Below are positions 6,288 through 61,744 of a stretch of DNA of 64,000 bases, one piece after another. The notes under the pieces were generated by a model. It made no database searches and had not been told where the DNA came from. It saw only the letters and a list, made by a program, of their open reading frames with translations. Source of the stretch: Candidatus Moranbacteria bacterium UBA1362 (GTDB lineage: Bacteria; Patescibacteriota; Minisyncoccia; Moranbacterales; GWC2-37-73); assembly GCA_002306085.1 (NCBI GenBank), contig DBRS01000014.1, positions 10,690-74,689 of the forward strand, in the 5' to 3' direction. Each line of letters begins with the position of its first letter. Position 1 is the stretch's first letter. A program made the translations under genes and the position numbers.

Positions 6288-6323
6288 CCAGCTAAAAATT
6301 CAAAATTTTGAATTTTTAGCTGG
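6288..6323. repeat. Perfect 36-bp palindrome between smpB and tmRNA
   Basis: ccagctaaaaattcaaaa|ttttgaatttttagctgg is exactly self-complementary. Its last two bases overlap the GGGG start of tmRNA. It probably acts as the smpB terminator or as a processing or promoter element. Confidence 0.7.
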
Positions 6324-6728
6324 GGTTGTTTAGTTTCGACAGGTTGTACTTTTCAAAATATGCAAGCCGACCATTGCCGTAATGTCGCCAAACTTTCGGC
6401 AAAGATATAAGTGCAAACTTCATATCAAAAGCAAAAGCGGTTTTCGCAAGAGGATTTGCTTTTGCTCCAGCTTTAGCTTAATTTAACAGCTTTAGCCATC
6501 GGACTGCCGATTTCTCATAAGCAATCTCCGGTGTCAATCATGAGGATAGTTTGATGCGGTTTTCCGGCTGCATCAAGTGAAATTCTTCCGGAAACTGCGC
6601 ATGTCGGGTTTTGTTTATTTCATACCGCATGCGCCGATCTCCGATTTTTTCGGAGGGAAATAAAACAAGCTTGTAGAATATTTTGGATTGTCAATTTTGG
6701 ACATGGGTGCGATTCCCATCAACTCCAC
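6322..6728 (+). ncRNA. ssrA: Transfer-messenger RNA (tmRNA, ssrA)
   Basis: The 5' end GGGGTTGTTTAGTTTCGACAGG matches the tmRNA 5' consensus (GGGGnuG...UUCGAC.GG). The 3' end GGACATGGGTGCGATTCCCATCAACTCCAC matches the tRNA-like T-arm and acceptor. The acceptor stem GGGGUUG/CAACUCC contains the G3:U70 alanine identity pair. An internal tag reading frame (...GCA AAA GCG GTT TTC GCA AGA GGA TTT GCT TTT GCT CCA GCT TTA GCT TAA) ends with ...PALA-stop about 110 nt from the 5' end. CCA is not encoded. It sits directly downstream of smpB. Confidence 0.85.
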
Positions 6729-6883
6729 TGAAAAAATTTTAAATACTAAAGCAACCTGACTACATTCCTTAGGAAAACTAGTCATGGTTCACTAAAGCCA
6801 TAAGAAAGAGATTTCGTTTCAAACCAAAACAACCAACCGGTCCGGCGCCACTAAGAACAAATGAAGCGATCCGGACTCCCTAT

Positions 6884-49835: not shown

Positions 49836-50279
49836 TTAAATCATTTCTCTTGCCTTCATCGCCATTATTTTTGCCGACAGTCCCAGATTTAATTTTTCTC
49901 CTATATTTTTCTCGGAAAAAGGAAACACGATGTTTTCTTCCTTTGCGACATGATCATCTATGACCTGCTGCATCTCACGCACCTTATTTTCATACTCAAC
50001 CAACCCTCCATCAAAATCCCTGAGTTCGTTTATATAACCGCGGACTTTGTTGTGTTCCTGAATGCTTTCTTCAATCATTTTTTCGCCTTCCATTGATACG
50101 CTCCTGACCTCGGGATAGAAAAGCTCTTCCTCGATTTTTGCATGTGTTTCGAAATTTTTGAATATTCTTTCCGCCAGCCTCTTTTTGTCATCGAAATCTT
50201 TTTCATCGCCCAGATCGATGAAAAGCTCCTTAACTTTTCTATGATCCCTTTTTAGGATTTCTATAGGCATTTGTTCCAT
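49836..50279 (-). CDS. Hemerythrin-like (HHE cation-binding) domain protein
   Basis: 147 aa. The H/E spacing (H..E...H....E and the HxxxE region DDHVAKEE) is characteristic of the hemerythrin fold. Confidence 0.6.
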   Translation of the reverse strand: MEQMPIEILKRDHRKVKELFIDLGDEKDFDDKKRLAERIFKNFETHAKIEEELFYPEVRSVSMEGEKMIEESIQEHNKVRGYINELRDFDGGLVEYENKVREMQQVIDDHVAKEENIVFPFSEKNIGEKLNLGLSAKIMAMKAREMI

Positions 50280-50411
50280 ATGATTATCAATTAATATTTA
50301 TACGTGAAATACAATCGCTAAAATGAAAAATTTCGCTTTTAGCTTGAAATTATCAGCCTTCATTTTTGTACTATTGGAAGACATAGGGTTTACTAGAAAG
50401 GAGGCAAAAAA

Positions 50412-50588
50412 ATGAAGAGCAGCAACAGAGGTTTGGCAAGCGCAGACAAGAAAACGAGACGTGAGGTTGCCAGAAAGGGCGGCCGGGCTGAACATGAAAA
50501 ACGAGGGCTCCAGGCTGCCGACAAAGAAACAAGACGAAGAGTTGCAAGAGCAGGCGGGCGCGCATCGCGAGGAGGCCGCAGCAGATAA
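50412..50588 (+). CDS. Small basic KGG-repeat stress-protein-like peptide (58 aa)
   Basis: AGGAGG lies 7 nt upstream of the ATG. It encodes MKSSNRGLASADKKTRREVARKGGRAEHEKRGLQAADKETRRRVARAGGRASRGGRSR, with a repeated (K/A)GGR motif. It is not in the ORF track, which lists overlapping ORFs in other frames. Confidence 0.45.
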   Translation: MKSSNRGLASADKKTRREVARKGGRAEHEKRGLQAADKETRRRVARAGGRASRGGRSR

Positions 50589-50642
50589 AACCATAACTTT
50601 TTACTTTACATCAAAAACAAGCCGGAAAGAAATGAAAAAATT

Positions 50643-51032
50643 TCATCCCTCCCGCATCTTTTTCCCGAGAAAATCGACTATTTCTTTGTCGCCGACATAA
50701 CAATTTTTGCCATCCCACAAAAGCGGCACGCCGATTGAATTTTCTTCGATGCCGCAGGATAATGCTTTTTCCCTCAATTCTCTTGCATTCGCGCTGTTAA
50801 AATAAATTTCTTTCCTGGAAATGCTCACTTTTTCTTCCACATTATTTTCACTTATAAATCTTTCTACATTCGCGCAGTGGGGACAGCTTTCCCCGTAAAA
50901 CAGAGTCACCCCGTTCGGTGACTGCGGGTCCTGCCCGAAGAATTCTCTGCTTTCTCCTCCGAAAAGAACGAAAGCCAAAAAAGCCGCGGCAATGACGGTA
51001 AAAATAATAGATATTTTTGTTTCTTGTTGCAT
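50643..51032 (-). CDS. Membrane-anchored glutaredoxin/thioredoxin-like protein (CPHC active site)
   Basis: 129 aa with an N-terminal TM. LFYGESCPHCANVERF fits a glutaredoxin-like fold. It is a paralog of 58344..58754. Confidence 0.65.
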   Translation of the reverse strand: MQQETKISIIFTVIAAAFLAFVLFGGESREFFGQDPQSPNGVTLFYGESCPHCANVERFISENNVEEKVSISRKEIYFNSANARELREKALSCGIEENSIGVPLLWDGKNCYVGDKEIVDFLGKKMREG

Positions 51033-51070
51033 AACATTTTATGCCGATCTATTTCTGCCGAAAGAAAAAT

Positions 51071-51535
51071 TCACAAAAATTCATTCCGGAAAAAAATTCC
51101 GAATTCCTTCGGAAGCATATTTTCGATATCGCGTATTTCATTTTTGGCAATGTGTTTTCCGAGTATTTTAAAAACGCCCCTTATAGTTTTTTCCGTCGAT
51201 ATGTCCGGATCGCTCGGAAATTTTCTTTCCACTTCTCCGATAAATTCAGCCCTGTTGAATTTCACCGGCATTTTTGACGGCTTCCATCCTTCATAATAAG
51301 CGCCGCGTATCAGCATCGGAAGCTGCGCTCCGAAGTCAGCGGCTTCTTCAACGGTAAGCCGGTCCCGCACCGTCTGAATAACCGCCTTCAAAAGAGAATA
51401 CGCCCTGTTCCTGCTGCCCAGCCATTCAAATTCATTTTCAATATCCTTGAGAAGCAGATTTGATTTTTGGATTGTGCTGTCGAAAACACCTTTCTTCGGC
51501 ATATAATTTTGCTGATTTACTTTTAAGTACTGCAA
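51071..51535 (-). CDS. DUF2267 family protein
   Basis: 154 aa. LTVEEAADFGAQLPMLIRGAYYEGWKP matches the DUF2267 core. Confidence 0.55.
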   Translation of the reverse strand: MQYLKVNQQNYMPKKGVFDSTIQKSNLLLKDIENEFEWLGSRNRAYSLLKAVIQTVRDRLTVEEAADFGAQLPMLIRGAYYEGWKPSKMPVKFNRAEFIGEVERKFPSDPDISTEKTIRGVFKILGKHIAKNEIRDIENMLPKEFGIFFRNEFL

Positions 51536-51642: not shown

Positions 51643-52251
51643 CTACTTGCGCTTGGAGTTGCCATTGCCATGTTTTTTGTCATTGTCTTGCACCCCTTTA
51701 TCTTTCTGATACTTGCCGTCATGCTTTTTGTCATACCTGTCATTGCCACACTTCTTTTTTGAGCAATGGTGACGTTTGTCTTTCTTGTCCTTGTCCCCGT
51801 CTTTCTTGTCCTTATCATTATCGTCATCGTCATCATCATCGTCGTCATGTTCGTTATTGTTTCCGCCCACGCAGGCATTCTCGTTCCAGCTCCAGCGCGC
51901 ATGATCACCGCATCTCGGAATCCAGTTCCAGCCGGCATCCACTTCCCTTATTTTCGCGAGCAATTCTTCCTTGCTGTCGATGTCATAACTATCCTGCTCG
52001 CGTTTCCTGTCTTTGCGGTCATCGCCGTTGCCTCCTTTGCAACGATCCTCATCCGTATCCCATACCGCATTATCTCCGCAGTTCGGGACCCAATCCCAAC
52101 CGGCATCAGCTTCTTCCACGACCTCCAGAAGCTCCTGTTCGCTTGTTATCATGCTTCTTGCATCAGCTTGGGACGCCACACAGCCGATTCCAAAGACCGA
52201 AAGTGCAGCCAATAGGAGAAACTGCAATCCGCCTGTTTTTAGTCTTTCCAT
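51643..52251 (-). CDS. Secreted low-complexity Asp/Lys-rich protein with duplicated Cys-Trp motif
   Basis: 202 aa with a signal peptide. It has two copies of a ~25-aa motif (DAGWDWVPNCGDNAVWDTDEDRCKGGNG and DAGWNWIPRCGDHARWSWNENACVGGNN). The C-terminus is a poly-D (DDDDDDDDD) and DK/KD-rich tail. Confidence 0.4.
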   Translation of the reverse strand: MERLKTGGLQFLLLAALSVFGIGCVASQADARSMITSEQELLEVVEEADAGWDWVPNCGDNAVWDTDEDRCKGGNGDDRKDRKREQDSYDIDSKEELLAKIREVDAGWNWIPRCGDHARWSWNENACVGGNNNEHDDDDDDDDDNDKDKKDGDKDKKDKRHHCSKKKCGNDRYDKKHDGKYQKDKGVQDNDKKHGNGNSKRK

Positions 52252-54378: not shown

Positions 54379-54407
54379 TTGCCAACTGCAGAATCTTTTG
54401 ATATAAT
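54379..54407 (+). promoter_or_regulatory. Near-consensus sigma70-type promoter (TTGCCA, 17 bp, TG-n-TATAAT) upstream of tRNA-Asn
   Basis: -35 ttgcca at 54379-54384, a 17-bp spacer and an extended -10 tgatataat at 54399-54407. A hairpin gttgct-gaaaa-agcaac plus T-run lies immediately downstream at ~54413-54436. Confidence 0.45.
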
Positions 54408-54540
54408 GCCTACGTTGCTGAAAAAGCAACATTTTTAAAAATCGAATATTCTGGCGTATCTGCCTGCCGCAGCCAAGACACAACTAAAGAGAAAAATATC
54501 TAAAAAGCTAATGCGGCAAATAACTTTCAAAAAACATTAT

Positions 54541-54612
54541 TCCGGCGTAGCGCAACGGTAGCGCAGGGGACTGTTAATCCCTTGGTTGTAGGTTCGAATC
54601 CTACCGCCGGAG
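54541..54612 (+). tRNA. tRNA-Asn (anticodon GTT)
   Basis: Manual fold. The acceptor is tccggcg/cgccgga, the D-arm gcgc-aacggta-gcgc, the anticodon arm gggga-cTGTTaa-tccct and the T-arm gtagg-ttcgaat-cctac. The discriminator is G and CCA is not encoded. Confidence 0.85.
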
Positions 54613-54750
54613 CACTGAAGTGTACTGTGCGTTCTCGAGTATGTAGTTAAAGGGAGAACGTAGCTCAAATAAAAGCTTTTTATCTTGAAGACGGCAGTTC
54701 TGAAGTAGAAAACTTAAGAGTTGCCGTTTTTCGTTTGCTTCAGAGGCGGA

Positions 54751-55489
54751 AAAGGGGTCAGGTACCTTTTTTCGGCCTTCCTCTTGGAATTAATGTAGAA
54801 ATCAGATTTAGTTTCTCGGCTATGTTTTTTATCCAATTTTCATTCCCATAAGGACGACCTCTTTTAATGGAATAATGTATTTTTTCCAATTTGTCTTCTT
54901 CGTTTTTATCAAGAGTATTAACCCATTCAAGATAACCGTCGGGCATTTCAACCGGCCATTTTGCAAGAAGCTTCTTTTGTTCCTCGTTTCCGTTTTCCCT
55001 GATCCAAAGACTGGACCATTTCCAATCTTGAGCCTTTTCAGTCAATCCGGCCCTCAAAGAATTTCTTTCCACATAACGGCAAACTTGCAAAAAATGATTA
55101 TCTTTTTCAACAAGAAAGGATTTGAATCTTCCCTGATAAACATGCCCGCAACCAATAGTTTTGTAATGGGCATGGTAACGTTGAGTGTGGGTATGAGTTA
55201 TCCATCTCATGAAATTTGACAAATCTTCTCCGTTTTTTGGATATAGCACAAAATGCCAATGGTTTGGCATTATGCAATATGAAAGAATTCGCATCGGATA
55301 CTTTTCCTTCGCTTCAAAAAGTATTTTTTCAAACGCTTCGTAATCTTTTTGTTTTTGAAATATTTTTTCTCTGCCATTGGCACGATTCAAGACATGGTAA
55401 ACCATATCGCCAACAGCTGAGCGTGGTATTCTTGCCATGCTCCAATCATATCACAATATTTATTGATAAAAAAGGTACCTGACCCCTTT
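54751..55489. mobile_element. IS200/IS605-family or RAYT-like element bounded by perfect 22-bp inverted repeats
   Basis: The left IR aaaggggtcaggtacctttttt (54751-54772) and right IR aaaaaaggtacctgaccccttt (55468-55489) are exact reverse complements. Each contains the GGTACC palindrome. They flank a single HuH Y1 transposase gene 140 bp from tRNA-Asn. Confidence 0.65.
54758..55438 (-). CDS. IS200-like / REP-associated tyrosine (Y1, HuH) transposase
   Basis: 226 aa. YHVLNRANGREKIF...ILSYCIMPNHWHFVLYP (the HuH motif is HWH) ...YQGRFKSF (catalytic Tyr region). The stop codon lies inside the left IR. Confidence 0.8.
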   Translation of the reverse strand: MARIPRSAVGDMVYHVLNRANGREKIFQKQKDYEAFEKILFEAKEKYPMRILSYCIMPNHWHFVLYPKNGEDLSNFMRWITHTHTQRYHAHYKTIGCGHVYQGRFKSFLVEKDNHFLQVCRYVERNSLRAGLTEKAQDWKWSSLWIRENGNEEQKKLLAKWPVEMPDGYLEWVNTLDKNEEDKLEKIHYSIKRGRPYGNENWIKNIAEKLNLISTLIPRGRPKKGT

Positions 55490-55553
55490 TTCTTTCTCAA
55501 TGTTGAATTGCTTCAAGGCGATGTTCTGCGGATCGGCTCCCGGTATTGTACAA

Positions 55554-56522
55554 CTAGCCAAAAATAACATTAAACAGATATCCCATGACGATTATCCCGA
55601 TAGTGGTTATTCCGAAAAAAATTGCCAGAAGCTGCCATCGCATCACCTTTTTGAGGATCAGTGCTTCAGGCAGTGACAGAGTAACGATTGCAGTCATGAA
55701 AGCTAAGACTGTGCCAAGCGGTGCGCCTTTGCCAACCATTGCATCCATTATTGGAAGAACGCTGACCGAATTGGCATAGAGCGGAACTCCTGACAAAACA
55801 GCCATTGGAACAGTCCACCAAGATTTTGCTGATAAATAATGTTCAACGAAGTTAGCAGGGATAAGACCGTGAATCAAAGCTCCGATTCCGACACCCAAAA
55901 GGACATAGGGAAAAATTTGTTTGGTAATTTTAAATCCATCTGTCCAAAAATATACCATCTGTTGACGAAAAGAAAGTTTATTGCCTCCATTTTCCAGTTC
56001 AACTTGCTTGCGCGATTTGAATTGCATGAGTTCGGGAAGGACATATTTTTCAACTTTTAATTTTTGAATCAACATTCCGCTAATTATTGCAATCGCCAGT
56101 CCGAATAAGTTATATAAAAAGGTTACTTTAATCCCGAAGAGTGCGGGGAAAAGATAGAGCGATGATTCGTTGATCAAAGGAGAGCTTATCAAAAATGCAA
56201 AGGTGATTCCCAAAGGAATGCCCGCACCCATAAAACCGATAAAAAGCGGGATTGATGAGCAGGAACAGAAAGGGGTAACAATCCCCAAAAGGGCGGCAAA
56301 AAGATAATTTAGCCCATACCAACGCTTTTTGGTCAGAATATCCCGTGCTCTTTCCATTGGAAAATAATAACGAGTAATCGCCATTATATAATTGACAACA
56401 ATCAAAAGCAGCCCGATCTTAACCGTGTCGTAAATAAAAAAGTTTATTCCGTCTGAAATTCCGGTATGCTCGGCTAGTTTGAAAACATCATAGGTCAGCC
56501 AATCGGCGAATGTTTTTATCAT
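55554..56522 (-). CDS. DUF318/ArsP-like permease
   Basis: 322 aa polytopic protein with the hallmark TPFCSCSSIP motif of the ArsP/DUF318 permease family. Confidence 0.7.
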   Translation of the reverse strand: MIKTFADWLTYDVFKLAEHTGISDGINFFIYDTVKIGLLLIVVNYIMAITRYYFPMERARDILTKKRWYGLNYLFAALLGIVTPFCSCSSIPLFIGFMGAGIPLGITFAFLISSPLINESSLYLFPALFGIKVTFLYNLFGLAIAIISGMLIQKLKVEKYVLPELMQFKSRKQVELENGGNKLSFRQQMVYFWTDGFKITKQIFPYVLLGVGIGALIHGLIPANFVEHYLSAKSWWTVPMAVLSGVPLYANSVSVLPIMDAMVGKGAPLGTVLAFMTAIVTLSLPEALILKKVMRWQLLAIFFGITTIGIIVMGYLFNVIFG

Positions 56523-56528
56523 ATATTG

Positions 56529-57245
56529 TTATAAATTGATTAAATATCTAATAAGGTATTGTAGATAGTAAATTCCAGCTAAAAGAAAAATTGTGGCAAC
56601 GCTATATCGCATTATTTTTTCAATGTTTTCCATTATATTGTAGATTTTTCCCAATTTTCCGATACTAAAAGCCAAAATAAAAGAAAAAGCAATAACGGGC
56701 AGCCCAGTTCCTAATGCAAACAAAGGAGGCAAAAGTAAACCGCCAGTTGATTTAATAACAAGTGGAATAAGTATTCCGAAAAATAATACTCCACTATAAG
56801 GGCAAAAGGCTAAAGCGAAAACAATACCCAATAGCAGTGTTCCAATATGTCCTTTTGTTGCCAGCCATTGTTTAATTTTTTCAATCTTCTCGTTTCTTGA
56901 GCCAATGTTTATTTTAATAATCCCAAACATTACTAATGCAATCAAGACAAGTAGTATTCCCAATACTTTATCGCCCCATCCCTGAAAAATTTTTGCCACC
57001 TGAAAGGAGGAAAGCCCGAAAAAAATAAGACCTGCCAAGAGCATATAGCTTATGCCCCTTCCCAAAGTATAAATAAAACCGCTGACTAGAGTATGCTTGG
57101 CGGTTTTTATTTCTCTGGAAATAAAAGCGATGGCAGTAATATTAGTTGCCAAAGGGCATGGACTGATGGAAGTCATCACTCCCAAGACAAAAGCAGATAG
57201 CAAGGGGATATTATATTGGTCTATTAAGATATTAAAAAATTCCAT
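56529..57245 (-). CDS. CcdA/DsbD-like transmembrane thiol-disulfide transporter
   Basis: 238 aa with 6 TM helices. The first helix carries SISPCPLAT, the Cys-Pro motif of the DsbD_2/CcdA family. Confidence 0.65.
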   Translation of the reverse strand: MEFFNILIDQYNIPLLSAFVLGVMTSISPCPLATNITAIAFISREIKTAKHTLVSGFIYTLGRGISYMLLAGLIFFGLSSFQVAKIFQGWGDKVLGILLVLIALVMFGIIKINIGSRNEKIEKIKQWLATKGHIGTLLLGIVFALAFCPYSGVLFFGILIPLVIKSTGGLLLPPLFALGTGLPVIAFSFILAFSIGKLGKIYNIMENIEKIMRYSVATIFLLAGIYYLQYLIRYLINL

Positions 57246-57256
57246 ATTTATTCGAA

Positions 57257-57823
57257 TTATTCAATGCAACAATCAATCGCTTTTCTTACGAGATCTCTTA
57301 GTTTTCCGGTAAAACCTGTTGGATTATTGTCGAGCTTGTTAAGCGCATTTTCGTCAATTTTTTTGATTGTTTTTTCAGATTCAACTCCACCGGCTTCTTT
57401 GATGTCATTTGTCCCGATAAGCTTCATATTTAAAGCCCAGAACATTCCATAAAGGTCATAAGATTTTTGGAACAGTTCCTTGGCTTCTTCTTTCTTGCCC
57501 ATTCCCAATTGTTTTGTTCCAACTTCCATAAGCCGCATCGATGCAGCCAGAAGGTGCTTGGAAATGCACCAAACTTCGCCTTCATATTCTTTAATAATTT
57601 TCTGAAGCAAAGACTTGCGCATTTCCCTTACTTCTTTGAGCAAATCAAAATATTCGTCTTTGCCTGTTTTTTCAGCTGTGAAGAAAAAATGTTCCTCAAT
57701 GCTAATAAGATTCATGATGGCAATACTAAGATCTTGATCGGATGATAGATCCATCTTATCCTGTTTCTTCATCTGATCAATTTTTTTCACGAATTCGCTT
57801 AAATTTTTGATTTTGTTTTGCAT
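57257..57823 (-). CDS. Hypothetical helical protein
   Basis: 188 aa. No motif was found. Confidence 0.3.
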   Translation of the reverse strand: MQNKIKNLSEFVKKIDQMKKQDKMDLSSDQDLSIAIMNLISIEEHFFFTAEKTGKDEYFDLLKEVREMRKSLLQKIIKEYEGEVWCISKHLLAASMRLMEVGTKQLGMGKKEEAKELFQKSYDLYGMFWALNMKLIGTNDIKEAGGVESEKTIKKIDENALNKLDNNPTGFTGKLRDLVRKAIDCCIE

Positions 57824-57827
57824 AATT

Positions 57828-58343
57828 TTATTTAGTTAGAAAATAATAAACGACGCTTAAAATGATTAAAGGTGCAATTGGCATTACCACTTTCTGAAAA
57901 GGAAAGTAGGCGTGTCCGTTATTTTTATCTTTGAGATGAAAATACCAGCTGGCGCCAAACCAAAAAGAAATGCTTCCGGCAATTATGCCGAAAAGCAGTT
58001 TGTCTAGACCGCAGTTACAAAAAGTATTTAAGGGATTGCCAATTATCTTGGAATAATGCAGCGGAATTAAGATTAAGGCATAATATCCTGCAATGTTAGC
58101 GTAAATTCTGCCTTTGAATTTGATATTTTTCTTATCCAGCCAGCTTTCCGTCCAAGCAATCATAGAAACGATCAGCCCTCCGATCCAAAGTCCGGTAATT
58201 GAATCATCTATTCCCAGCCAGCGTGAAAGTCCGACACCGGCGCTGACAGCAATTGTGCAAATTGGACAAACCGCCCATGCTTTTTTGGCAAAAATAACCC
58301 CGACTGTAAAAAACGCTAAAAATAACGCTGATTTTTTATTCAT
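57828..58343 (-). CDS. Membrane protein with CPxC and CxC motifs (possible thiol-disulfide oxidoreductase)
   Basis: 171 aa and ~4 TM helices. AVCPICT lies in TM1 and FCNCG in a later loop. Confidence 0.35.
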   Translation of the reverse strand: MNKKSALFLAFFTVGVIFAKKAWAVCPICTIAVSAGVGLSRWLGIDDSITGLWIGGLIVSMIAWTESWLDKKNIKFKGRIYANIAGYYALILIPLHYSKIIGNPLNTFCNCGLDKLLFGIIAGSISFWFGASWYFHLKDKNNGHAYFPFQKVVMPIAPLIILSVVYYFLTK

Positions 58344-58754
58344 TTATTTTTCGTAAATTTTTTGTTTGAAAAAAGCAATGATATCTTTGTCGCCACTCAG
58401 GCATTTTTCTCCGTCCCAAAGAAAGGGAATACCTATTGAATCTTTCGGTATTCCACAGGCTCTGGCTTTTTCTTCCAATTGTTTGAAATTGGCTCGGTCG
58501 CGATAGATCTCCTTTTGAGAAAATTTTATTTTTTCATCTACTTTATTTTTTTTGATGTAGTCTTCCACGATCAAACAATGCGGGCAGCCGTCCCCATAGA
58601 AAAAAATTATATTCTCTTCCGATTCCACTTTCTCCTGAACCGGCATCTCGCTTGCCGGCAATTGCTCTGAGCTTTTATCTTTGAAAAAAGCATAAAATGA
58701 AAATATCAGAGTGAAAATGAATAAGACTGTAGGTATAATGATTTTATTTTTCAT
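58344..58754 (-). CDS. Membrane-anchored glutaredoxin-like protein (CPHC)
   Basis: 136 aa. FFYGDGCPHCLIVEDYI. It is a paralog of 50643..51032. Confidence 0.65.
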   Translation of the reverse strand: MKNKIIIPTVLFIFTLIFSFYAFFKDKSSEQLPASEMPVQEKVESEENIIFFYGDGCPHCLIVEDYIKKNKVDEKIKFSQKEIYRDRANFKQLEEKARACGIPKDSIGIPFLWDGEKCLSGDKDIIAFFKQKIYEK

Positions 58755-58760
58755 GGTTTT

Positions 58761-59243
58761 TTATAATAAACTTTTTATTTCCGAAACAAGATAATCAGAA
58801 AAAGCCTTTTTGTCGGATATTAGTCTCCAAACCCGGGTGTCTTCTTTGATGTTGTCCTTGCCGTCGATAATCGGATTGATAAAAAGCGATGATCCAGCCG
58901 CCTTAAACTTAGCCGCAATTTCCTTATTTTCCGGCAAATCCACGTTAATTTCTTTGAATTCAATTTTTCCTTCATGCAACTCTAATTGAAAGAATTCCTC
59001 AAGCGTTGCTTTCGTGTATTGACCTATTGTTATGCAGGAATGGCAGCGGTTAGTGGAATGAAACATGTAAACCTGGATTTTTTCCGCCGGTTTTGTTTTT
59101 TGAACTTCAGTCTCCTGAGAATTTTTTTGCGTGTTGATGCTGTCGGACTGAGAATTTTTGTTCGAATTTGCGCTTATATAGATAAGTGCTATGGCAAAAA
59201 ACAAAGCGCTTCCATAAAGCAAATATATCCCTAACTTTTTCAT
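58761..59243 (-). CDS. Secreted/anchored CxxC protein (CHSC), possible thioredoxin-like fold
   Basis: 160 aa with an N-terminal TM. VYMFHSTNRCHSCITIGQY. Confidence 0.35.
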   Translation of the reverse strand: MKKLGIYLLYGSALFFAIALIYISANSNKNSQSDSINTQKNSQETEVQKTKPAEKIQVYMFHSTNRCHSCITIGQYTKATLEEFFQLELHEGKIEFKEINVDLPENKEIAAKFKAAGSSLFINPIIDGKDNIKEDTRVWRLISDKKAFSDYLVSEIKSLL

Positions 59244-59264
59244 AATATGCTCCTATCTTAATTA

Positions 59265-59552
59265 TTAGCACTTGCAATTGCAAGAACAAGCCCCGGCCTG
59301 ATTGTTTGCTGACATTTTGTAATTTGCCAATATTTCTTTGATTTGATCAACATCAGGCACTGATCCGGCTATGACTACTTTCTCATCCACAATCAAAACT
59401 GGCATGCTCATTACGTTATATTCCATTATTTTTTGAATGTCGGTTATTTTTTCTACCGTCGTTTCCATTTTTAATTCTTCCAGAGCTTTTTTTGTGTTGG
59501 ATTCAAGTTTTTGGCAATTAGGACAGTCAGAGCCTAAGATTTTAATGTTCAT
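59265..59552 (-). CDS. Thioredoxin-family small redox-active disulfide protein (CPNC active site) with Cys-rich tail
   Basis: 95 aa. MNIKILGSDCPNCQKLE resembles the 'redox-active disulfide protein 2' family that is commonly paired with ArsR and DUF318 permeases. The C-terminus is CSCNCKC. Confidence 0.65.
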   Translation of the reverse strand: MNIKILGSDCPNCQKLESNTKKALEELKMETTVEKITDIQKIMEYNVMSMPVLIVDEKVVIAGSVPDVDQIKEILANYKMSANNQAGACSCNCKC

Positions 59553-59557
59553 AACGT

Positions 59558-59866
59558 TTATTTGATTACTTGATTAAAAATTTTCTTATAATCCTTGATA
59601 GCTTTTTTATTAAGGGAATAGCGGATAAAATTTCCTTCCCTTGTTTCATTCAAAAGCCCTATTTTTTTCAGTTGCTTTAGATGGTGGGAAGCCAATTTGT
59701 CTGAGATGCCGATGGCGGGAATTATTTCGCATACGCATTTTGAGCCTCTCTGAAGAACGCAGAGAATTTTCAGTCTGTTTGGATCGGCGATGGCGCGAAG
59801 AAATGAATATGTTTTGGCAACATCATCCGCCTCTTTTGAATTTTTTCCGCAACAATTGAATGACAT
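59558..59866 (-). CDS. ArsR/SmtB family metalloregulatory transcriptional repressor
   Basis: 102 aa. The wHTH region has the metal-sensing CVCE motif (LKILCVLQRGSKCVCEIIPAIGISDKLASHHLKQLKKIGLL). Confidence 0.85.
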   Translation of the reverse strand: MSFNCCGKNSKEADDVAKTYSFLRAIADPNRLKILCVLQRGSKCVCEIIPAIGISDKLASHHLKQLKKIGLLNETREGNFIRYSLNKKAIKDYKKIFNQVIK

Positions 59867-60033
59867 AAAAAAACTATTCTAGTTTATATTAGAATAGTAT
59901 AATCTTTTTTTAATTTTGTCAAAAGTTCCGGGCCTGTTGTAACAAAAACAAGGCCTTAACGATCTTGTTTATAAAATACTTCCTATGATAGATATGTTTC
60001 GCAACTTTAATATTAGTCATAGCAAGGAATTGA

Positions 60034-60378
60034 TTAAAATGGTTTAGTGATATTTACGTCATCCACTCTGACTTTGTGAGAAATAATCAAAGACTTCAAA
60101 TGTTCCCTGAATTCTTGCATTGGCACAAGCCCGCTTCGTGCGTTTGTCAAAGCTTGAAATCCATCCGCTTTAGTTAAATTCAATCCGAGAGCCACCACTC
60201 CCATATTGAAACCAAGCTGGATCTTCCGCTCTTCGGATAAATCATCCCACTTGTCTACTTGTGTAAATCGTAGCACTTGTTCACAGGCGTGAATAACAAA
60301 ATCATTCATATTATTTCTTATATCTATAATTATATCATAAAAAGCTTTGGAGTTATATTGGTATAAAAAATAACCCAA
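60034..60378 (-). CDS. Hypothetical protein
   Basis: 114 aa with no motif. It lies immediately 3' of the intron-containing tRNA gene. Confidence 0.3.
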   Translation of the reverse strand: MGYFLYQYNSKAFYDIIIDIRNNMNDFVIHACEQVLRFTQVDKWDDLSEERKIQLGFNMGVVALGLNLTKADGFQALTNARSGLVPMQEFREHLKSLIISHKVRVDDVNITKPF

Positions 60379-60440
60379 TAAAAATGGGTTATTTTATCTA
60401 GCTCCGCGAGTAGGACTCGAACCTACAACCAATTGATTAC

Positions 60441-60986
60441 ACATTATCTCTTTGTTTCCAAAAAGGGTGGACTATATCATCTCCTTTACAGGAGTGAGGC
60501 GCTTCCCGGAATTTAAAATTCCAGTACTCTCTTGCAAGATAGTCTCTGAACCTTTCCCGGATGATGGGACTTGGCTGCTGATTACCATAATTTCTGCTGA
60601 GAAATGTTAGGCTTCCAGCAATTCACCTCATTCTTCACTTCCAAATTTCTTTGGAAGGCTGCGAATGTTATTATGCAACTCTCTGTGGCAATTTGCGCAT
60701 ACAAGAATGCATTTTTCAACTTCACCTTTCACTCTCTCCCAGCTGCGGGTCAAACCCGATTGGGAAACGCCAAATTCTTTTTTGAAGAATCGGCATGATG
60801 AAATTCCAATGCATCACTGCAACGATCATAGCCACAAAGCGCACACCTACCGCCTCCATATTGAATTGCCATTTCTCTAAGTTTCTTGCGTCTTTTTGAA
60901 ACAGCCTTGATCATATACTCTCGGCGGTCAGCATATTTTCGGGTATCCTTCATATATTTTAATTATAACATGAAGGAACGTGTACC
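60441..60986 (-). ncRNA. Group I self-splicing intron (inserted in tRNA anticodon loop)
   Basis: The minus strand contains the canonical group I core elements R (GTTCAGAGACTA, plus-strand coords 60541-60552) and S (GATATAGTCC, 60470-60479). The intron ends in G before the 3' exon. The 5' exon ends in U, consistent with a P1 U.G pair. Confidence 0.7.
60583..60953 (-). pseudogene. Decayed HNH homing-endonuclease gene inside the intron
   Basis: The 67-aa ORF 60750..60953 encodes ...GGGRCALCGYDRCSDALEFHHADSSKKN (a CxxC knuckle plus the HH of HNH). The same frame, interrupted by two TGA stops, continues as ...KNAFLYAQIATES..., where the second knuckle (N..LC..CH) has mutated to Y/I/A. Confidence 0.5.
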
Positions 60987-61744
60987 ACAGTCAACTGCTC
61001 TACCATTGAGCTATCGCGGAATATTTAATTTTAAAAATGTTGCCCAATAAAGCAACAAAAGCATTATAACAAAAGATTGCCTGCTTGGCAAGGCTTAAAA
61101 ATGGGCCGGATCTTGAATAACGCATCTGTCTTATCACTTGTTTTTGCGGCGTTTTTCGCGGTTGTCGCCATCGGCATGATTTTGATCGGCTTTGCTTTCA
61201 ATATGTTTTTCTGACAAAAGTAACGGCTTTTCCCGATATTTCGATTTTTTCACGAGAAGCATGTTATTCATCAATTAACATATTCTGTTTTTGTGATAGA
61301 ATATGAACATAACATTAATACAAAAAAATGAACCACAAAAGGCTTGAAGTTTTTCTGGAGTTCCTGTGTTTTGGAGTGATCATGGGCGTTATTGAAGACA
61401 TGATCGCAGTCAGAATCACATCAGGAACACCTATAACATGGAAGGTTTTCGGAGTCATCGTTTTAATAGCGATTCCTTTTGCCTTCATCGGAGAAATGAT
61501 CGTCGACAAGATCAACTTTGTGAAGCTTTTCAGAAGATTCTTTTCAAAAAAACGAAGGGCATAGAAAAAACAGCAAAACAAAATCGAAGCGCCGCAAGGC
61601 GTTTTTTTGTTTGCCGACATCCCTTCCCTGTTCATGCGGAGGATCCAATGATGAGCAATGTTCATCCCGATCACTGGCGACAGAAGACGAAAAAATTCTG
61701 TTTGTACTAAATGTAGGCATGATAATTAATTAATCTTCAAAAAA

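Follow-up and report, generated by a model that had tools for sequence, protein, structure and literature searches.

A cysteine-rich, ArsR-headed gene block in a Moranbacteria bacterium: an arsR-arsE-arsF-arsG-permease cassette and a conserved Patescibacteria module in a putative composite operon

The closest described counterpart of the locus analyzed here is the ArsEFG cassette, found in Shewanella putrefaciens 200 and on plasmids of Fulvitalea and Prevotella. In the literature ArsG functions in efflux, and Chen, Zhang and Rosen reportedly proposed in 2019 that ArsE/ArsF is a nitroreductase and ArsG an efflux permease, with no electron relay. Further points of comparison are the thioredoxin-CcdA/DsbD-ResA/CcmG pathway, the MerP/MerT/MerA relay, and disulfide catalysts such as Erv2, Ero1 and DsbB, in which a helical bundle is combined with a flexible tail that carries a shuttle pair of cysteines. 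The family (PF03773) of the organoarsenical efflux permease ArsP, of which a CSC motif has been discussed as a feature, also provides SaoE of the SAO system, where it accompanies the thioredoxin-like SaoT and SaoC with its C-terminal CC (bioRxiv 10.1101/2022.07.06.499078).

The window, a stretch of 64,000 nucleotides from a Moranbacteria (Patescibacteria/CPR) bacterium of anaerobic-digester origin, contains a minus-strand block of eight ORFs with successive gaps of 5, 21, 6, 0, 4, 11 and 6 bp (Table 1). An earlier note on this DNA had described eight consecutive minus-strand genes, and all of the ORFs were found exactly where it had placed them, as were the motifs that it quoted (ArsR CVC, CPNC, CSCNCKC, CHSC, CPHC, CPIC, CNC, SISPCPLA and TPFCSCSS). 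Since homologues of each ORF were detected elsewhere, and several anaerobic-digester contigs and the MAG GCA_035411305.1 carry the identical eight-gene block, these are real genes rather than chance ORFs.

Table 1. Positions and assignments of the features at the locus (window coordinates).
Feature	Position	Strand	Assignment	Basis
Permease gene	55554..56522	-	ArsP_1-family permease; TPFCSCS motif (TPFCSCSS here)	Pfam PF03773, 196.9 bits (cut-off 32.3)
arsG	56529..57245	-	CcdA/DsbD-type membrane protein; SISPCPLA, ALAFCPYSG	NF040495 (equivalog), 278 bits (cut-off 200); Pfam DsbD_2, 66.8 bits
P188	57257..57823	-	Cytoplasmic protein of 188 aa, predicted all-helical; module-2 gene 3	Conservation, fusions
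Mem171	57828..58343	-	Membrane protein; module-2 gene 2	Signal peptide, CPxC, four TM helices
Grx136	58344..58754	-	N-terminally anchored extracytoplasmic glutaredoxin-like protein; CPHC, second Cys pair C100/C118; module-2 gene 1	
arsF	58761..59243	-	Membrane-anchored exported CxxC (RCHSC) protein	NF040494, 105.6 bits (cut-off 60)
arsE	59265..59552	-	Cytoplasmic MTH895/ArsE-family thioredoxin-like protein; CPNC, Cys-rich tail CSCNCKC	TIGR00412, 100.7 bits (cut-off 62); Pfam Thioredoxin_3, 95.9 bits
arsR	59558..59866	-	ArsR/SmtB metalloregulator; N-terminal CC, CVC in DNA-binding domain	Pfam HTH_5, 56.6 bits (cut-off 22); NF033788, 82.7 bits (cut-off 55)
Palindrome	59873..59898	.	Candidate ArsR operator, ACTATTCTA-N8-TAGAATAGT	Perfect 9-N8-9; covers part of promoter -10
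Promoter	59894..59922 (59922..59894)	-	Sigma-70-like, TTGACA-17-TACTAT, 5' of arsR	10/12 consensus positions
Grx129	50643..51032	-	Stand-alone Grx136 paralog outside the operon; CPHC, same second Cys pair	38% identity, E 8e-36

As judged from profile matches, five of the eight genes are an already-named arsenic-type detoxification cassette, arsR-arsE-arsF-arsG-ArsP_1 permease, the products of arsE, arsF and arsG all exceeding the cut-offs of their NCBIfam models. The same five genes are annotated by PGAP in identical order on plasmid pFA1 of Fulvitalea axinellae, and on a plasmid of Prevotella nigrescens F0103 the cassette adjoins arsC-acr3. The annotated ArsG proteins of the two are 49.6% and 41.5% identical to that of the operon, respectively, and their orthologous "permease" (260 and 310 bits), encoded 3' of arsG or of the thioredoxin gene, has the same TPFCSCS motif. 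The earlier picture of an ArsR-headed, cysteine-rich operon, with a thioredoxin-like protein in the cytoplasm, a CcdA/DsbD-type membrane protein, CxxC proteins that are exported and a permease of the ArsP_1 family, was borne out, but its description of the ArsR and DUF318 permease families as functionally poorly defined does not fit this curated cassette. The locus differs from the Bacteroidota plasmids in having three extra genes between arsF and arsG, a Cys-rich C-terminal tail on ArsE, an N-terminal CC in ArsR and a CPR host, and in the absence of arsC and acr3; within the window, neither these nor arsB or arsM was found near the operon.

The N-terminal CC of ArsR, which the earlier note did not mention, is shared together with CVC by most of seven CPR homologues. 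ArsE, which has no export signal, matched MtH895 (PDB 1ILO) with an E value of 7.6e-13, and Cys-rich tails of its type also occur at three other loci (L009, L022 and L073). Among the homologues of ArsF, those at L061 and L073 have lipoboxes and those of Bacteroidota have signal peptides, with F61, H62, C67 and C70 invariant; a thioredoxin fold is not established for it, with a PDB E value of 0.4 and an hhalign probability of 45% over 21 columns. Both CcdA-type membrane cysteines of ArsG are invariant. Taken together, the lack of an export signal in ArsE, the two cysteines of ArsG and the invariant CxxC of the exported ArsF suggest a trans-membrane relay. Such an arrangement resembles the ResA/CcmG pathway, in that a DsbD_2-family protein with two conserved membrane cysteines is flanked by genes for a cytoplasmic thioredoxin-like and an exported CxxC protein, but the operon has no cytochrome c maturation genes and ArsF is not demonstrably of the thioredoxin fold. 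The permease shares the hallmark CSC of the PF03773 family, its TPFCSCS motif being kept in CPR loci, but scored far below the cut-offs of the curated equivalogs SaoE (107 versus 325) and SO_0444 (82 versus 300), the latter assigned to Cu/Zn.

The three middle genes, by their conservation and order elsewhere, are a separate uncharacterised module that appears to have been captured here between arsF and arsG. The Grx-Mem-P188 trio was found in the same order across Patescibacteria, with at least 597 species hits. In 66 of 77 loci P188 is immediately preceded by the Mem171 gene (median gap 6.5 bp), and in 46 of 64 the Mem171 gene is immediately preceded by the Grx gene (median gap 2 bp), spacings of 2-7 bp being typical, and the remaining neighbours are usually housekeeping genes. 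Ars-type genes are contiguous with the module, within about 1.3 kb, in 11 of 79 loci and in at least five different orders, and at two loci (L009 and L045) P188 directly adjoins ArsE and ArsP without Mem171 or Grx. Across genomes, each of the two sub-modules is conserved, and the two recur side by side in varying orders; the eight-gene order as a whole was seen in this one species only. The absence of an ars-type neighbour in the other 68 loci, together with a P188 identity of 65-87% between classes, suggests a housekeeping role of the module unrelated to metalloids.

Grx136 gave no family above cut-off in Pfam or NCBIfam, but matched a glutaredoxin (PDB 7c10) with an E value of 4e-4, and its homologues have N-terminal anchors or lipobox variants and conserve the second Cys pair. 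For Mem171, a signal peptide (AxA|VCPxC) is predicted to place CPxC at the extracellular mature N-terminus; four TM helices come after it, and the two loops rich in K/R (residues 70-80 and 137-151) would face the cytoplasm. Among 68 homologues, the CPxC part of the formerly noted CPIC/CNC pair of motifs holds in 67, whereas CNC occurs in only 9-16. Mem171 has no conserved intramembrane Cys or His, and its conserved cysteines all appear to be extracellular, so that no route by which electrons or ligands could travel between P188 and the outside is apparent.

P188 is probably the most interesting component of the operon. It was formerly singled out as free of cysteine motifs, which proved incorrect: the family has an invariant EEH, a near-invariant Cys86 (WCISKH) and a conserved C-terminal CC (DCCIE). 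At least 8000 homologues, forming 622 clusters at 50% identity, were found, with no relative in Pfam, NCBIfam or PDB, and the predicted structure is a poor model (pLDDT 53.7). In two homologues a LAGLIDADG intein is inserted precisely 5' of the Cys86 codon position, which marks this site as the conserved core. Fusions of P188 to Grx make up about 80 clusters and retain CPHC as well as the second Cys pair and the C-terminal CC; one fusion of the type Trx-P188 was also detected. In eight clusters P188-Grx is preceded by an F420_oxidored domain (67 bits), which binds NADP; genomes with the NADP-domain and Grx fusions have no adjacent Mem171. Judging from these fusions, P188 is a probable redox partner of proteins with the thioredoxin fold, and most likely it would feed in electrons as their reductase. 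A helical core with a catalytic Cys, together with a flexible C-terminal tail bearing two further cysteines, would also recall Erv2/QSOX and high-Mr thioredoxin reductase, shuttle-cysteine enzymes which we take P188 to resemble, in keeping with its natural fusion to thioredoxin-fold and NADP-binding domains; unlike them, it has no Pfam match to Evr1_Alr or to pyridine-nucleotide disulfide oxidoreductases, and its bundle has one Cys rather than CxxC.

The gaps of 0-21 bp, the lone strong promoter and the palindrome 5' of arsR argue for a single operon. The promoter is the top sigma-70 consensus match in 54400-60500, and terminator-like sites within the block (6) were not in excess over shuffled sequence (5.0 ± 2.7). 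Upstream of the closest arsR homologue (L009), the same half-site recurs as TATTCTAA-N6-TTAGAATA, and at three other loci (L028, L040, L059) arsR is preceded by a different conserved palindrome, TATCAAT-N4-ATTGATA. We consider it about an even call that the block forms a single transcription unit, repressed by ArsR and composed of two thiol-based envelope modules, and from its anatomy we infer the following flow. A thiophilic inducer, whether a soft metal, As(III) or an organoarsenical in trivalent form, would bind the CC/CVC of ArsR and release it from the palindrome covering the -10 box. Cytoplasmic ArsE would donate reducing equivalents to ArsG, whose two membrane cysteines would hand them on to ArsF with its exported CxxC. 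In parallel, cytoplasmic P188, with Cys86 and the C-terminal CC as a flexible "shuttle", would be coupled by way of Mem171 to the exported CPHC of Grx136. The reduced surface thiols might then bind or reduce the toxicant, to be removed by the CSC-motif permease and possibly ArsG. Several observations speak against this reading: the published roles of ArsE/ArsF and ArsG, the absence of conserved intramembrane Cys or His in Mem171, the 68 loci without ars-type neighbours and the high identity of P188 across classes, the lack of arsC, acr3, arsB and arsM near the operon, the poor model of P188, the unsupported thioredoxin fold of ArsF and the restriction of the eight-gene order to one species. 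The regulated extracytoplasmic reductive or organoarsenical pathway of the earlier note was a fair and broadly right reading, but missed the known cassette and the composite nature of the block.

An alternative takes the names of the cassette literally: the block would detoxify aromatic or methyl arsenicals as in Shewanella, with ArsE and ArsF acting as nitro-group reductases on roxarsone or nitarsone in trivalent form, ArsG and ArsP expelling the products, and the middle three genes being passengers of the transcript. The above-cut-off matches of ArsE, ArsF and ArsG to NCBIfam equivalog/subfamily models, the Pfam ArsP_1 match, the arsC-acr3 linkage in Prevotella and the CVC of ArsR, a motif typical of As(III) sensors, all favor it, and the relationship of DsbD_2 to TauE/SafE-type exporters (33% identity) makes transport by ArsG plausible. 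We nevertheless regard it as unlikely, considering that ArsF is exported and ArsE cytoplasmic, which is less in keeping with a soluble nitroreductase of two subunits than with a relay across the membrane, that ArsG keeps both CcdA redox cysteines, and that nitro-aromatic arsenicals, as synthetic feed additives, are an unlikely native substrate of a cassette widespread in CPR and Bacteroidota; a passenger role is further at odds with the repeated adjoining of the module to ars-type genes in differing orders.

Two other readings start from the middle genes. Grx136 and Mem171 might form or isomerise disulfides in CPR secreted and pilus proteins as a housekeeping envelope system. P188 would then be their redox partner, or an electron sink, on the cytoplasmic side, a CcdA-type reducing branch would consist of ArsE, ArsG and ArsF, and the ArsR-family protein would sense thiol or redox stress instead of a metalloid. 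The Patescibacteria-wide occurrence of the module among housekeeping genes and the very high conservation of P188 with its intein at Cys86 are consistent with such a system, as are the general theme of Erv2, Ero1 and DsbB and the resemblances to DsbA/DsbB and VKOR systems: Grx136 is an exported thioredoxin-superfamily protein bearing the DsbA motif CPHC, and Mem171, likewise exporting its CxxC, would be the small multi-helix membrane partner. We rate this reading as quite unlikely. A Mer-like ligand exchange, in which a metal(loid) would pass from Grx136 (as MerP) via the CPxC of Mem171 (MerT/MerC) to the CC of P188 (MerA), be transformed or buffered inside and be exported by ArsP without trans-membrane electrons, seems highly improbable. 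Its on-paper architecture is parallel, comprising an exported protein that binds through CxxC, a small membrane protein whose first mature helix bears two cysteines at its outer end, and a cytoplasmic protein with a C-terminal vicinal CC; it needs no membrane-embedded redox cysteines, and it agrees with the association of the module with ArsR, Cys-tailed ArsE and CSC permeases as well as with a thematic parallel in the SAO system (bioRxiv 10.1101/2022.07.06.499078). However, there is no homology to MerP, MerT, MerC, MerA or SaoC and no fold relationship to the MerP/MerT/MerA relay, P188 has no flavin-disulfide reductase domain, its NADP-domain/Grx fusions without adjacent Mem171 indicate redox chemistry rather than metal trafficking, and such universal conservation would be surprising in an import route for detoxification.

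The second Grx-like paralog reported earlier outside the operon, Grx129, is real, and at many other CPR loci the Grx encoded 5' of the membrane gene is nearer to Grx129 than to Grx136.

As summarized in the table below, the eight genes of the operon were recovered as consecutive minus-strand open reading frames at exactly the coordinates proposed in the earlier note, with gaps of 5, 21, 6, 0, 4, 11, and 6 bp between successive genes. The top-scoring sigma-70-like promoter within 54.4-60.5 kb (TTGACA-17-TACTAT, 59922..59894, 10/12) was located just upstream of arsR, and a perfect 9-N8-9 palindrome, ACTATTCTA-N8-TAGAATAGT (59873-59898), which overlapped its -10 box, was regarded as the candidate ArsR operator. 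The half-site of this palindrome was also found upstream of the closest arsR homologue (L009; L numbers denote homologous loci in other genomes or contigs), and another group of loci shared a different palindrome at the equivalent position upstream of arsR, both of which fit autoregulated repressors of the ArsR/SmtB type. Terminator-like hairpins within the block were no commoner than in shuffled sequence, and the identical eight-gene block was present in several anaerobic-digester contigs and in the MAG GCA_035411305.1. All the cysteine motifs quoted in the earlier note were present in the sequence; of the two assigned to the membrane protein Mem171 (CPIC and CNC), however, the CPxC was conserved in homologues and the CNC was not, and the 188-aa protein P188, which had been said to carry no such motif, proved to possess Cys86 (WCISKH) and, at its C-terminus, DCCIE, whose cysteines vary little or not at all throughout its family. 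The source names attached to the encoded proteins were Candidatus Moranbacteria/Moraniibacteriota, which belong to Patescibacteria/CPR.

Features of the operon and its surroundings
Feature	Coordinates	Strand	Evidence
Hemerythrin	49836-50279	-	
KGG/LEA_5-like basic peptide	50412-50588	+	
Grx129, stand-alone paralog of Grx136	50643-51032	-	
DUF2267 protein	51071-51535	-	
tRNA-Asn(GUU)	54541-54613	+	
REP-associated tyrosine transposase (RAYT)	54758-55438	-	NF047646 73 bits, just under cut-off 80; Y1_Tnp 66.5 bits
ArsP_1 permease	55554-56522	-	PF03773 196.9 bits (cut-off 32.3); TPFCSCSS (CSC motif)
ArsG family	56529-57245	-	NF040495 equivalog 278 bits (cut-off 200); Pfam DsbD_2 66.8 bits
P188	57257-57823	-	
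Mem171	57828-58343	-	
Grx136	58344-58754	-	
ArsF family	58761-59243	-	NF040494 105.6 bits (cut-off 60)
MTH895/ArsE-family thioredoxin-like protein	59265-59552	-	TIGR00412 100.7 bits (cut-off 62); PDB 1ILO E 7.6e-13
ArsR/SmtB regulator	59558-59866	-	HTH_5 56.6 bits (cut-off 22); NF033788 82.7 bits (cut-off 55)
tRNA-Thr(UGU), interrupted after U33 by 547-nt group I intron	60401-61020	-	RF00028 85.1 bits, core 60448-60687

Judging from the profile matches, five of the eight genes constitute a known, curated cassette, and the ars part of the operon is ordinary. ArsR carried the sequence KCVCEI (CVC, helix alpha3) together with an N-terminal CC, features common to most of the seven CPR homologues; these cysteines may act as metal(loid)-binding ligands. 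ArsE was devoid of an export signal and ended in a Cys-rich tail (CSCNCKC in the window; CGCC, CSCGGKC, and CSCGSC in three CPR relatives). ArsF, in which the FH..C..C motif was invariant, exhibited export features, namely an N-terminal anchor in the window, a lipobox in each of L061 and L073, and, in Bacteroidota, signal peptides, and the two membrane cysteines of ArsG, C30 and C148 (SISPCPLA and ALAFCPYSG, on separate TM segments), were invariant in seven sequences ranging from CPR to Bacteroidota. The permease fell outside the characterised PF03773 subfamilies (SaoE, 107.2 vs the cut-off of 325 bits; SO_0444, 82 vs 300).

A tblastn search of ArsG against plasmids retrieved the same genes as annotated by PGAP. 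The order in pFA1 of Fulvitalea axinellae (ArsR, thioredoxin, ArsF, ArsG, permease) was that of the window minus the three middle genes, and a Prevotella nigrescens plasmid showed the order wHTH regulator, ArsF, ArsG, thioredoxin, permease, ArsC, and ACR3. ArsE and ArsF reportedly act on trivalent roxarsone and nitarsone by reducing their nitro group, the amino products being exported by ArsG. The name ArsEFG is attributed to Chen, Zhang and Rosen (Environ Sci Technol 2019), as cited in PMC9144182. The operon differed from this type in the Cys tail of ArsE, in the N-terminal CC of ArsR, and in the interruption between arsF and arsG, where three unrelated genes break the arsE-arsF-arsG contiguity seen in Fulvitalea and in L022, L059, and L073; it also lacked arsC and acr3, neither of which, nor arsB, was called within +/-10 kb of the operon. 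The whole operon is a new variant of the known cassette, and it extends the curated cassette to CPR bacteria.

For the three middle genes, Grx136, Mem171, and P188 (the trio), no Pfam or NCBIfam family scored above cut-off, no described relative was found in Pfam, NCBIfam, PDB sequences, PDB folds, or the literature searched, and a literature search for the CPR module gave nothing relevant. P188 homologues numbered at least 8000 in a 5.8-billion-cluster database (622 clusters at 50% identity), with 65-87% identity across classes, and a scan in which each GTDB species was represented by a single genome yielded at least 597 loci. Those listed came from Moran-, Uhr-, Nealson-, Magasanik-, Taylor-, Buchanan-, Jackson-, and Falkowbacteria, Paceibacterota, and Peribacteria, from unclassified Patescibacteria/Parcubacteria, and from some MAGs labelled otherwise. 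Neighbourhoods were counted in 80 loci fetched out of these, with up to 7 kb on each side. Mem171 lay directly upstream of P188 in 66/77 informative loci, the most frequent gap, 4 bp, being also that of the window, and a gene of the Grx136/Grx129 type directly upstream of Mem171 in 46/64. Ars-type genes were contiguous with the module in 11/79 loci and, within the flanks of up to 7 kb, were never more than about 1.3 kb away from it. They occurred in at least five orders (R, E, F, G, and P denoting ArsR, ArsE, ArsF, ArsG, and the ArsP-type permease), including R-E-P-F-G-Grx-Mem-P188, R-E-P-Grx-Mem-P188-F-G, R-E-P-Grx-Mem-P188, R-E-P-F-G-P188, R-P188-E-P, and one divergent arrangement; the order in the window, R-E-F-[Grx-Mem-P188]-G-P, was encountered in this species alone. 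Thus, the eight genes as such do not form a conserved neighbourhood, and what is conserved are two sub-modules that have been brought together repeatedly. The trio is a separate CPR-wide module captured in this operon.

In a set of 34 diverse P188 members, the residues D25, S27, E43, E44, H45, R69, E83, W85, C86, K89, H90, R97, E100, C185, C186, and E188 were invariant or nearly so; Pfam searches with the same members gave no recurrent family, and searches of PDB sequences with P188 or with Mem171 gave no match. Inteins generally occupy the best-conserved positions of conserved proteins, and in P0314 and P0355 (P numbers of this form denote P188-family proteins) a LAGLIDADG-type intein of ~385 aa, starting with Cys and ending in His-Asn, was located precisely between W85 and the near-invariant C86, which makes Cys86 the +1 nucleophile. 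P0242-P0244 contained two P188 copies in tandem within one polypeptide, the N-terminal copy being devoid of both Cys86 and the C-terminal CC, an arrangement that suggests a pseudo-dimer and hints at a dimer. Fusions to glutaredoxin were found in ~80 clusters, where the Grx domain, homologous to that of Grx136 (E 2e-14), was inserted ahead of the C-terminal CC and kept its CxxC (mostly CPHC) and second Cys pair, and P0258 represented a single Trx(CGSC)-P188 fusion. Furthermore, eight clusters (P0401-P0405, P0408, P0409, and P0415) had an N-terminal NADP-binding F420_oxidored domain (PF03807, 67 bits; cut-off 21.6), followed by P188, by a glutaredoxin domain with CPHC, and by the C-terminal CC, in 471-500 aa; the ~80 glutaredoxin-fusion clusters had no such NADP domain. 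No signal peptide was present in the P188 fusions. The fetched Grx-containing fusions were encoded on contigs of 57-66% GC (62-64% at L093-L095, the loci of NADP-P188-Grx fusions), where the Mem171 gene was absent beside them wherever flanking genes were visible and no conserved neighbours appeared in the genomic contexts fetched; the Trx-P188 contigs, at 33% GC, were AT-rich and did not extend far enough to reveal neighbours. The P188-Grx and NADP-P188-Grx proteins look like an unnamed family of soluble redox enzymes. At L009 and L045, P188 directly adjoined ArsE and ArsP without Mem171 or Grx. The intein, the tandem copies, the fusions to Grx, Trx, and NADP-binding domains, and the adjacency to ArsE/ArsP thus suggested that P188 acts in the cytoplasm as a redox partner of CxxC proteins with a thioredoxin fold and can be wired to NAD(P)H.

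With a putative catalytic Cys in its helical core and a Cys pair on a flexible tail, P188 may resemble Erv2/QSOX and high-Mr thioredoxin reductase, a likeness for which Pfam gave no support. A thematic parallel to the operon, not homologous to it, is provided by the SAO system (Haft, bioRxiv 10.1101/2022.07.06.499078), which comprises the thioredoxin-like SaoT, the ArsP-family SaoE with a CSC motif, and SaoC, which has a CC at its C-terminus. The assignment of P188 as SaoC-like was rejected on the basis of no NCBIfam match, a different location, no signal peptide, and a CC followed by two more residues.

Grx136 possessed an invariant CPHC and a second conserved Cys pair (C100 and C118), and its closest solved relatives were glutaredoxins; since the homologues have N-terminal anchors and several of them lipoboxes, the domain is probably extracytoplasmic. 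Mem171 began with a canonical signal peptide, in which a basic N-region and a hydrophobic core are followed by AxA directly preceding VCPxC, and family-wide the mean K+R count was 4.7 in loop 70-80 and 4.0 in loop 137-151, with few in the other loops. According to the positive-inside rule, the mature N-terminus with its CPxC would lie outside the cell, and four TM helices would follow it. An alternative six-TM topology with a cytoplasmic CPxC was rejected because of these K/R counts and the conserved AxA cleavage motif, and the N-terminal extensions of some Mem171 database entries look like over-called starts. Mem171 as a diverged CcdA/DsbD was likewise rejected, as hhalign against ArsG/DsbD_2 gave a probability of 1.7% and the sole resemblance was a short 'ALA-x-CP'. 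No Cys or His of Mem171 was conserved inside the membrane, which leaves no visible path from P188 to the outside CPxC and constitutes the weak point of the mechanism proposed here; speculatively, the N-terminal CPxC segment freed by signal peptidase might dip into the four-helix bundle.

From this anatomy of the operon we infer a flow through two relays. A thiophilic inducer would release ArsR from the palindrome, one route to the exported CxxC protein would lead from ArsE via ArsG to ArsF, and a parallel route would lead from P188 via Mem171 to Grx136; P188 may double as the reductase of ArsE, and the CSC permease would export thiol-reactive species. We tentatively propose that the trio is an undescribed trans-membrane thiol relay across Patescibacteria, with P188 as the presumed core of a new class of disulfide reductases linked to NAD(P)H (a helical bundle with catalytic Cys86 and a C-terminal CC shuttle) and Mem171 as a membrane conduit of a new kind, having no relationship to DsbD/CcdA, DsbB, or VKOR and working through the N-terminal CPxC generated by signal peptidase, the relay here feeding ars-type envelope machinery; taken jointly, these elements are possible but rather unlikely all to hold. 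Within the same doubtful thiol-relay reading, P188 would be free-standing in CPR, and GC-rich bacteria would carry it joined to glutaredoxin and an NADP-binding domain.

Read literally, the operon would be an ArsEFG detoxification system carrying the trio as passengers. Transfer from thioredoxin through CcdA to an exported CxxC protein is, however, an established trans-membrane relay pathway, and the operon appears to share its layout in cytoplasmic ArsE, two-Cys ArsG, and exported CxxC ArsF (a candidate thioredoxin fold); by this analogy, the ars anatomy resembles an electron relay more than it does a "nitroreductase plus pump", which sharpens the doubt about the annotation. A housekeeping Dsb-like system is another explanation to be weighed: apart from the ars-type genes, the recurrent neighbours of the trio were all housekeeping genes (ThrRS, an RRM protein, PilM, a P-type ATPase, and an ABC ATPase). 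Mem171 showed no sequence or fold similarity to DsbB/VKOR. A further rival is a Mer-like ligand-exchange route. The regulated extracytoplasmic reductive pathway envisaged in the earlier note is partly supported, in the form of a known ars cassette plus a captured CPR-wide module.

The embedded trio matters more than the ars part, P188 above all, which is very highly conserved and has no assigned function, and little is understood of the envelope biology and redox economy of the lineage that hosts the trio. To our knowledge, Patescibacteria/CPR lack the usual quinone-based disulfide machinery. The natural fusions of an NADP-binding domain, P188, and glutaredoxin represent a soluble, testable enzyme that could reveal the role of the family, and the repeated ArsE/ArsP linkage offers a testable phenotype for the trio.

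The GC content of the operon (56000-60000) was 37.1% as compared with 41.0% for the window, the adjoining 2-kb bins being at 40-45%. The operon was flanked by tRNA-Asn and the RAYT gene on one side and, one ORF upstream of the arsR promoter, by the intron-bearing tRNA-Thr on the other. The latter was missed by default ARAGORN and detected with introns allowed, and its intron contained an HNH-endonuclease-like frame that is broken into two ORFs (60750-60953 and 60628-60753). Metagenome contigs belonging to this species diverged immediately downstream of the permease, RAYT being present only in L004 and L005, the latter with an additional methyltransferase/helicase/ATPase insertion. Elsewhere, tRNA-Ser genes lay on both sides of the ars/P188 block in L022 (3905-7694), tRNA-His and tRNA-Arg directly upstream of arsR in L073 (11388-11555), and tRNA-Pro after P188 in L028 (3485-3561). 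The tRNA-adjoining blocks, the low GC, and the strain differences downstream suggest an island-like, mobile position of the ars part.

Outside the operon, the glutaredoxin-like paralog Grx129 was indeed found beside a KGG peptide and a hemerythrin, as the earlier note had described, within a stress-type gene cluster (49836-51535). The neighbouring minus-strand gene at 51643-52251 encodes a 202-aa protein to which the gene callers had assigned no Pfam family; its N-terminus resembles a signal peptide, and it contains two copies of a ~50-aa repeat (…EEADAGWDWVPNCGDNAVWD…, …REVDAGWNWIPRCGDHARWSW…) and a long D/K-rich tail. In addition, a tmRNA gene was detected at 6322-6730 (+; Rfam 121.6 bits), with the tag peptide ANFISKAKAVFARGFAFAPALA.
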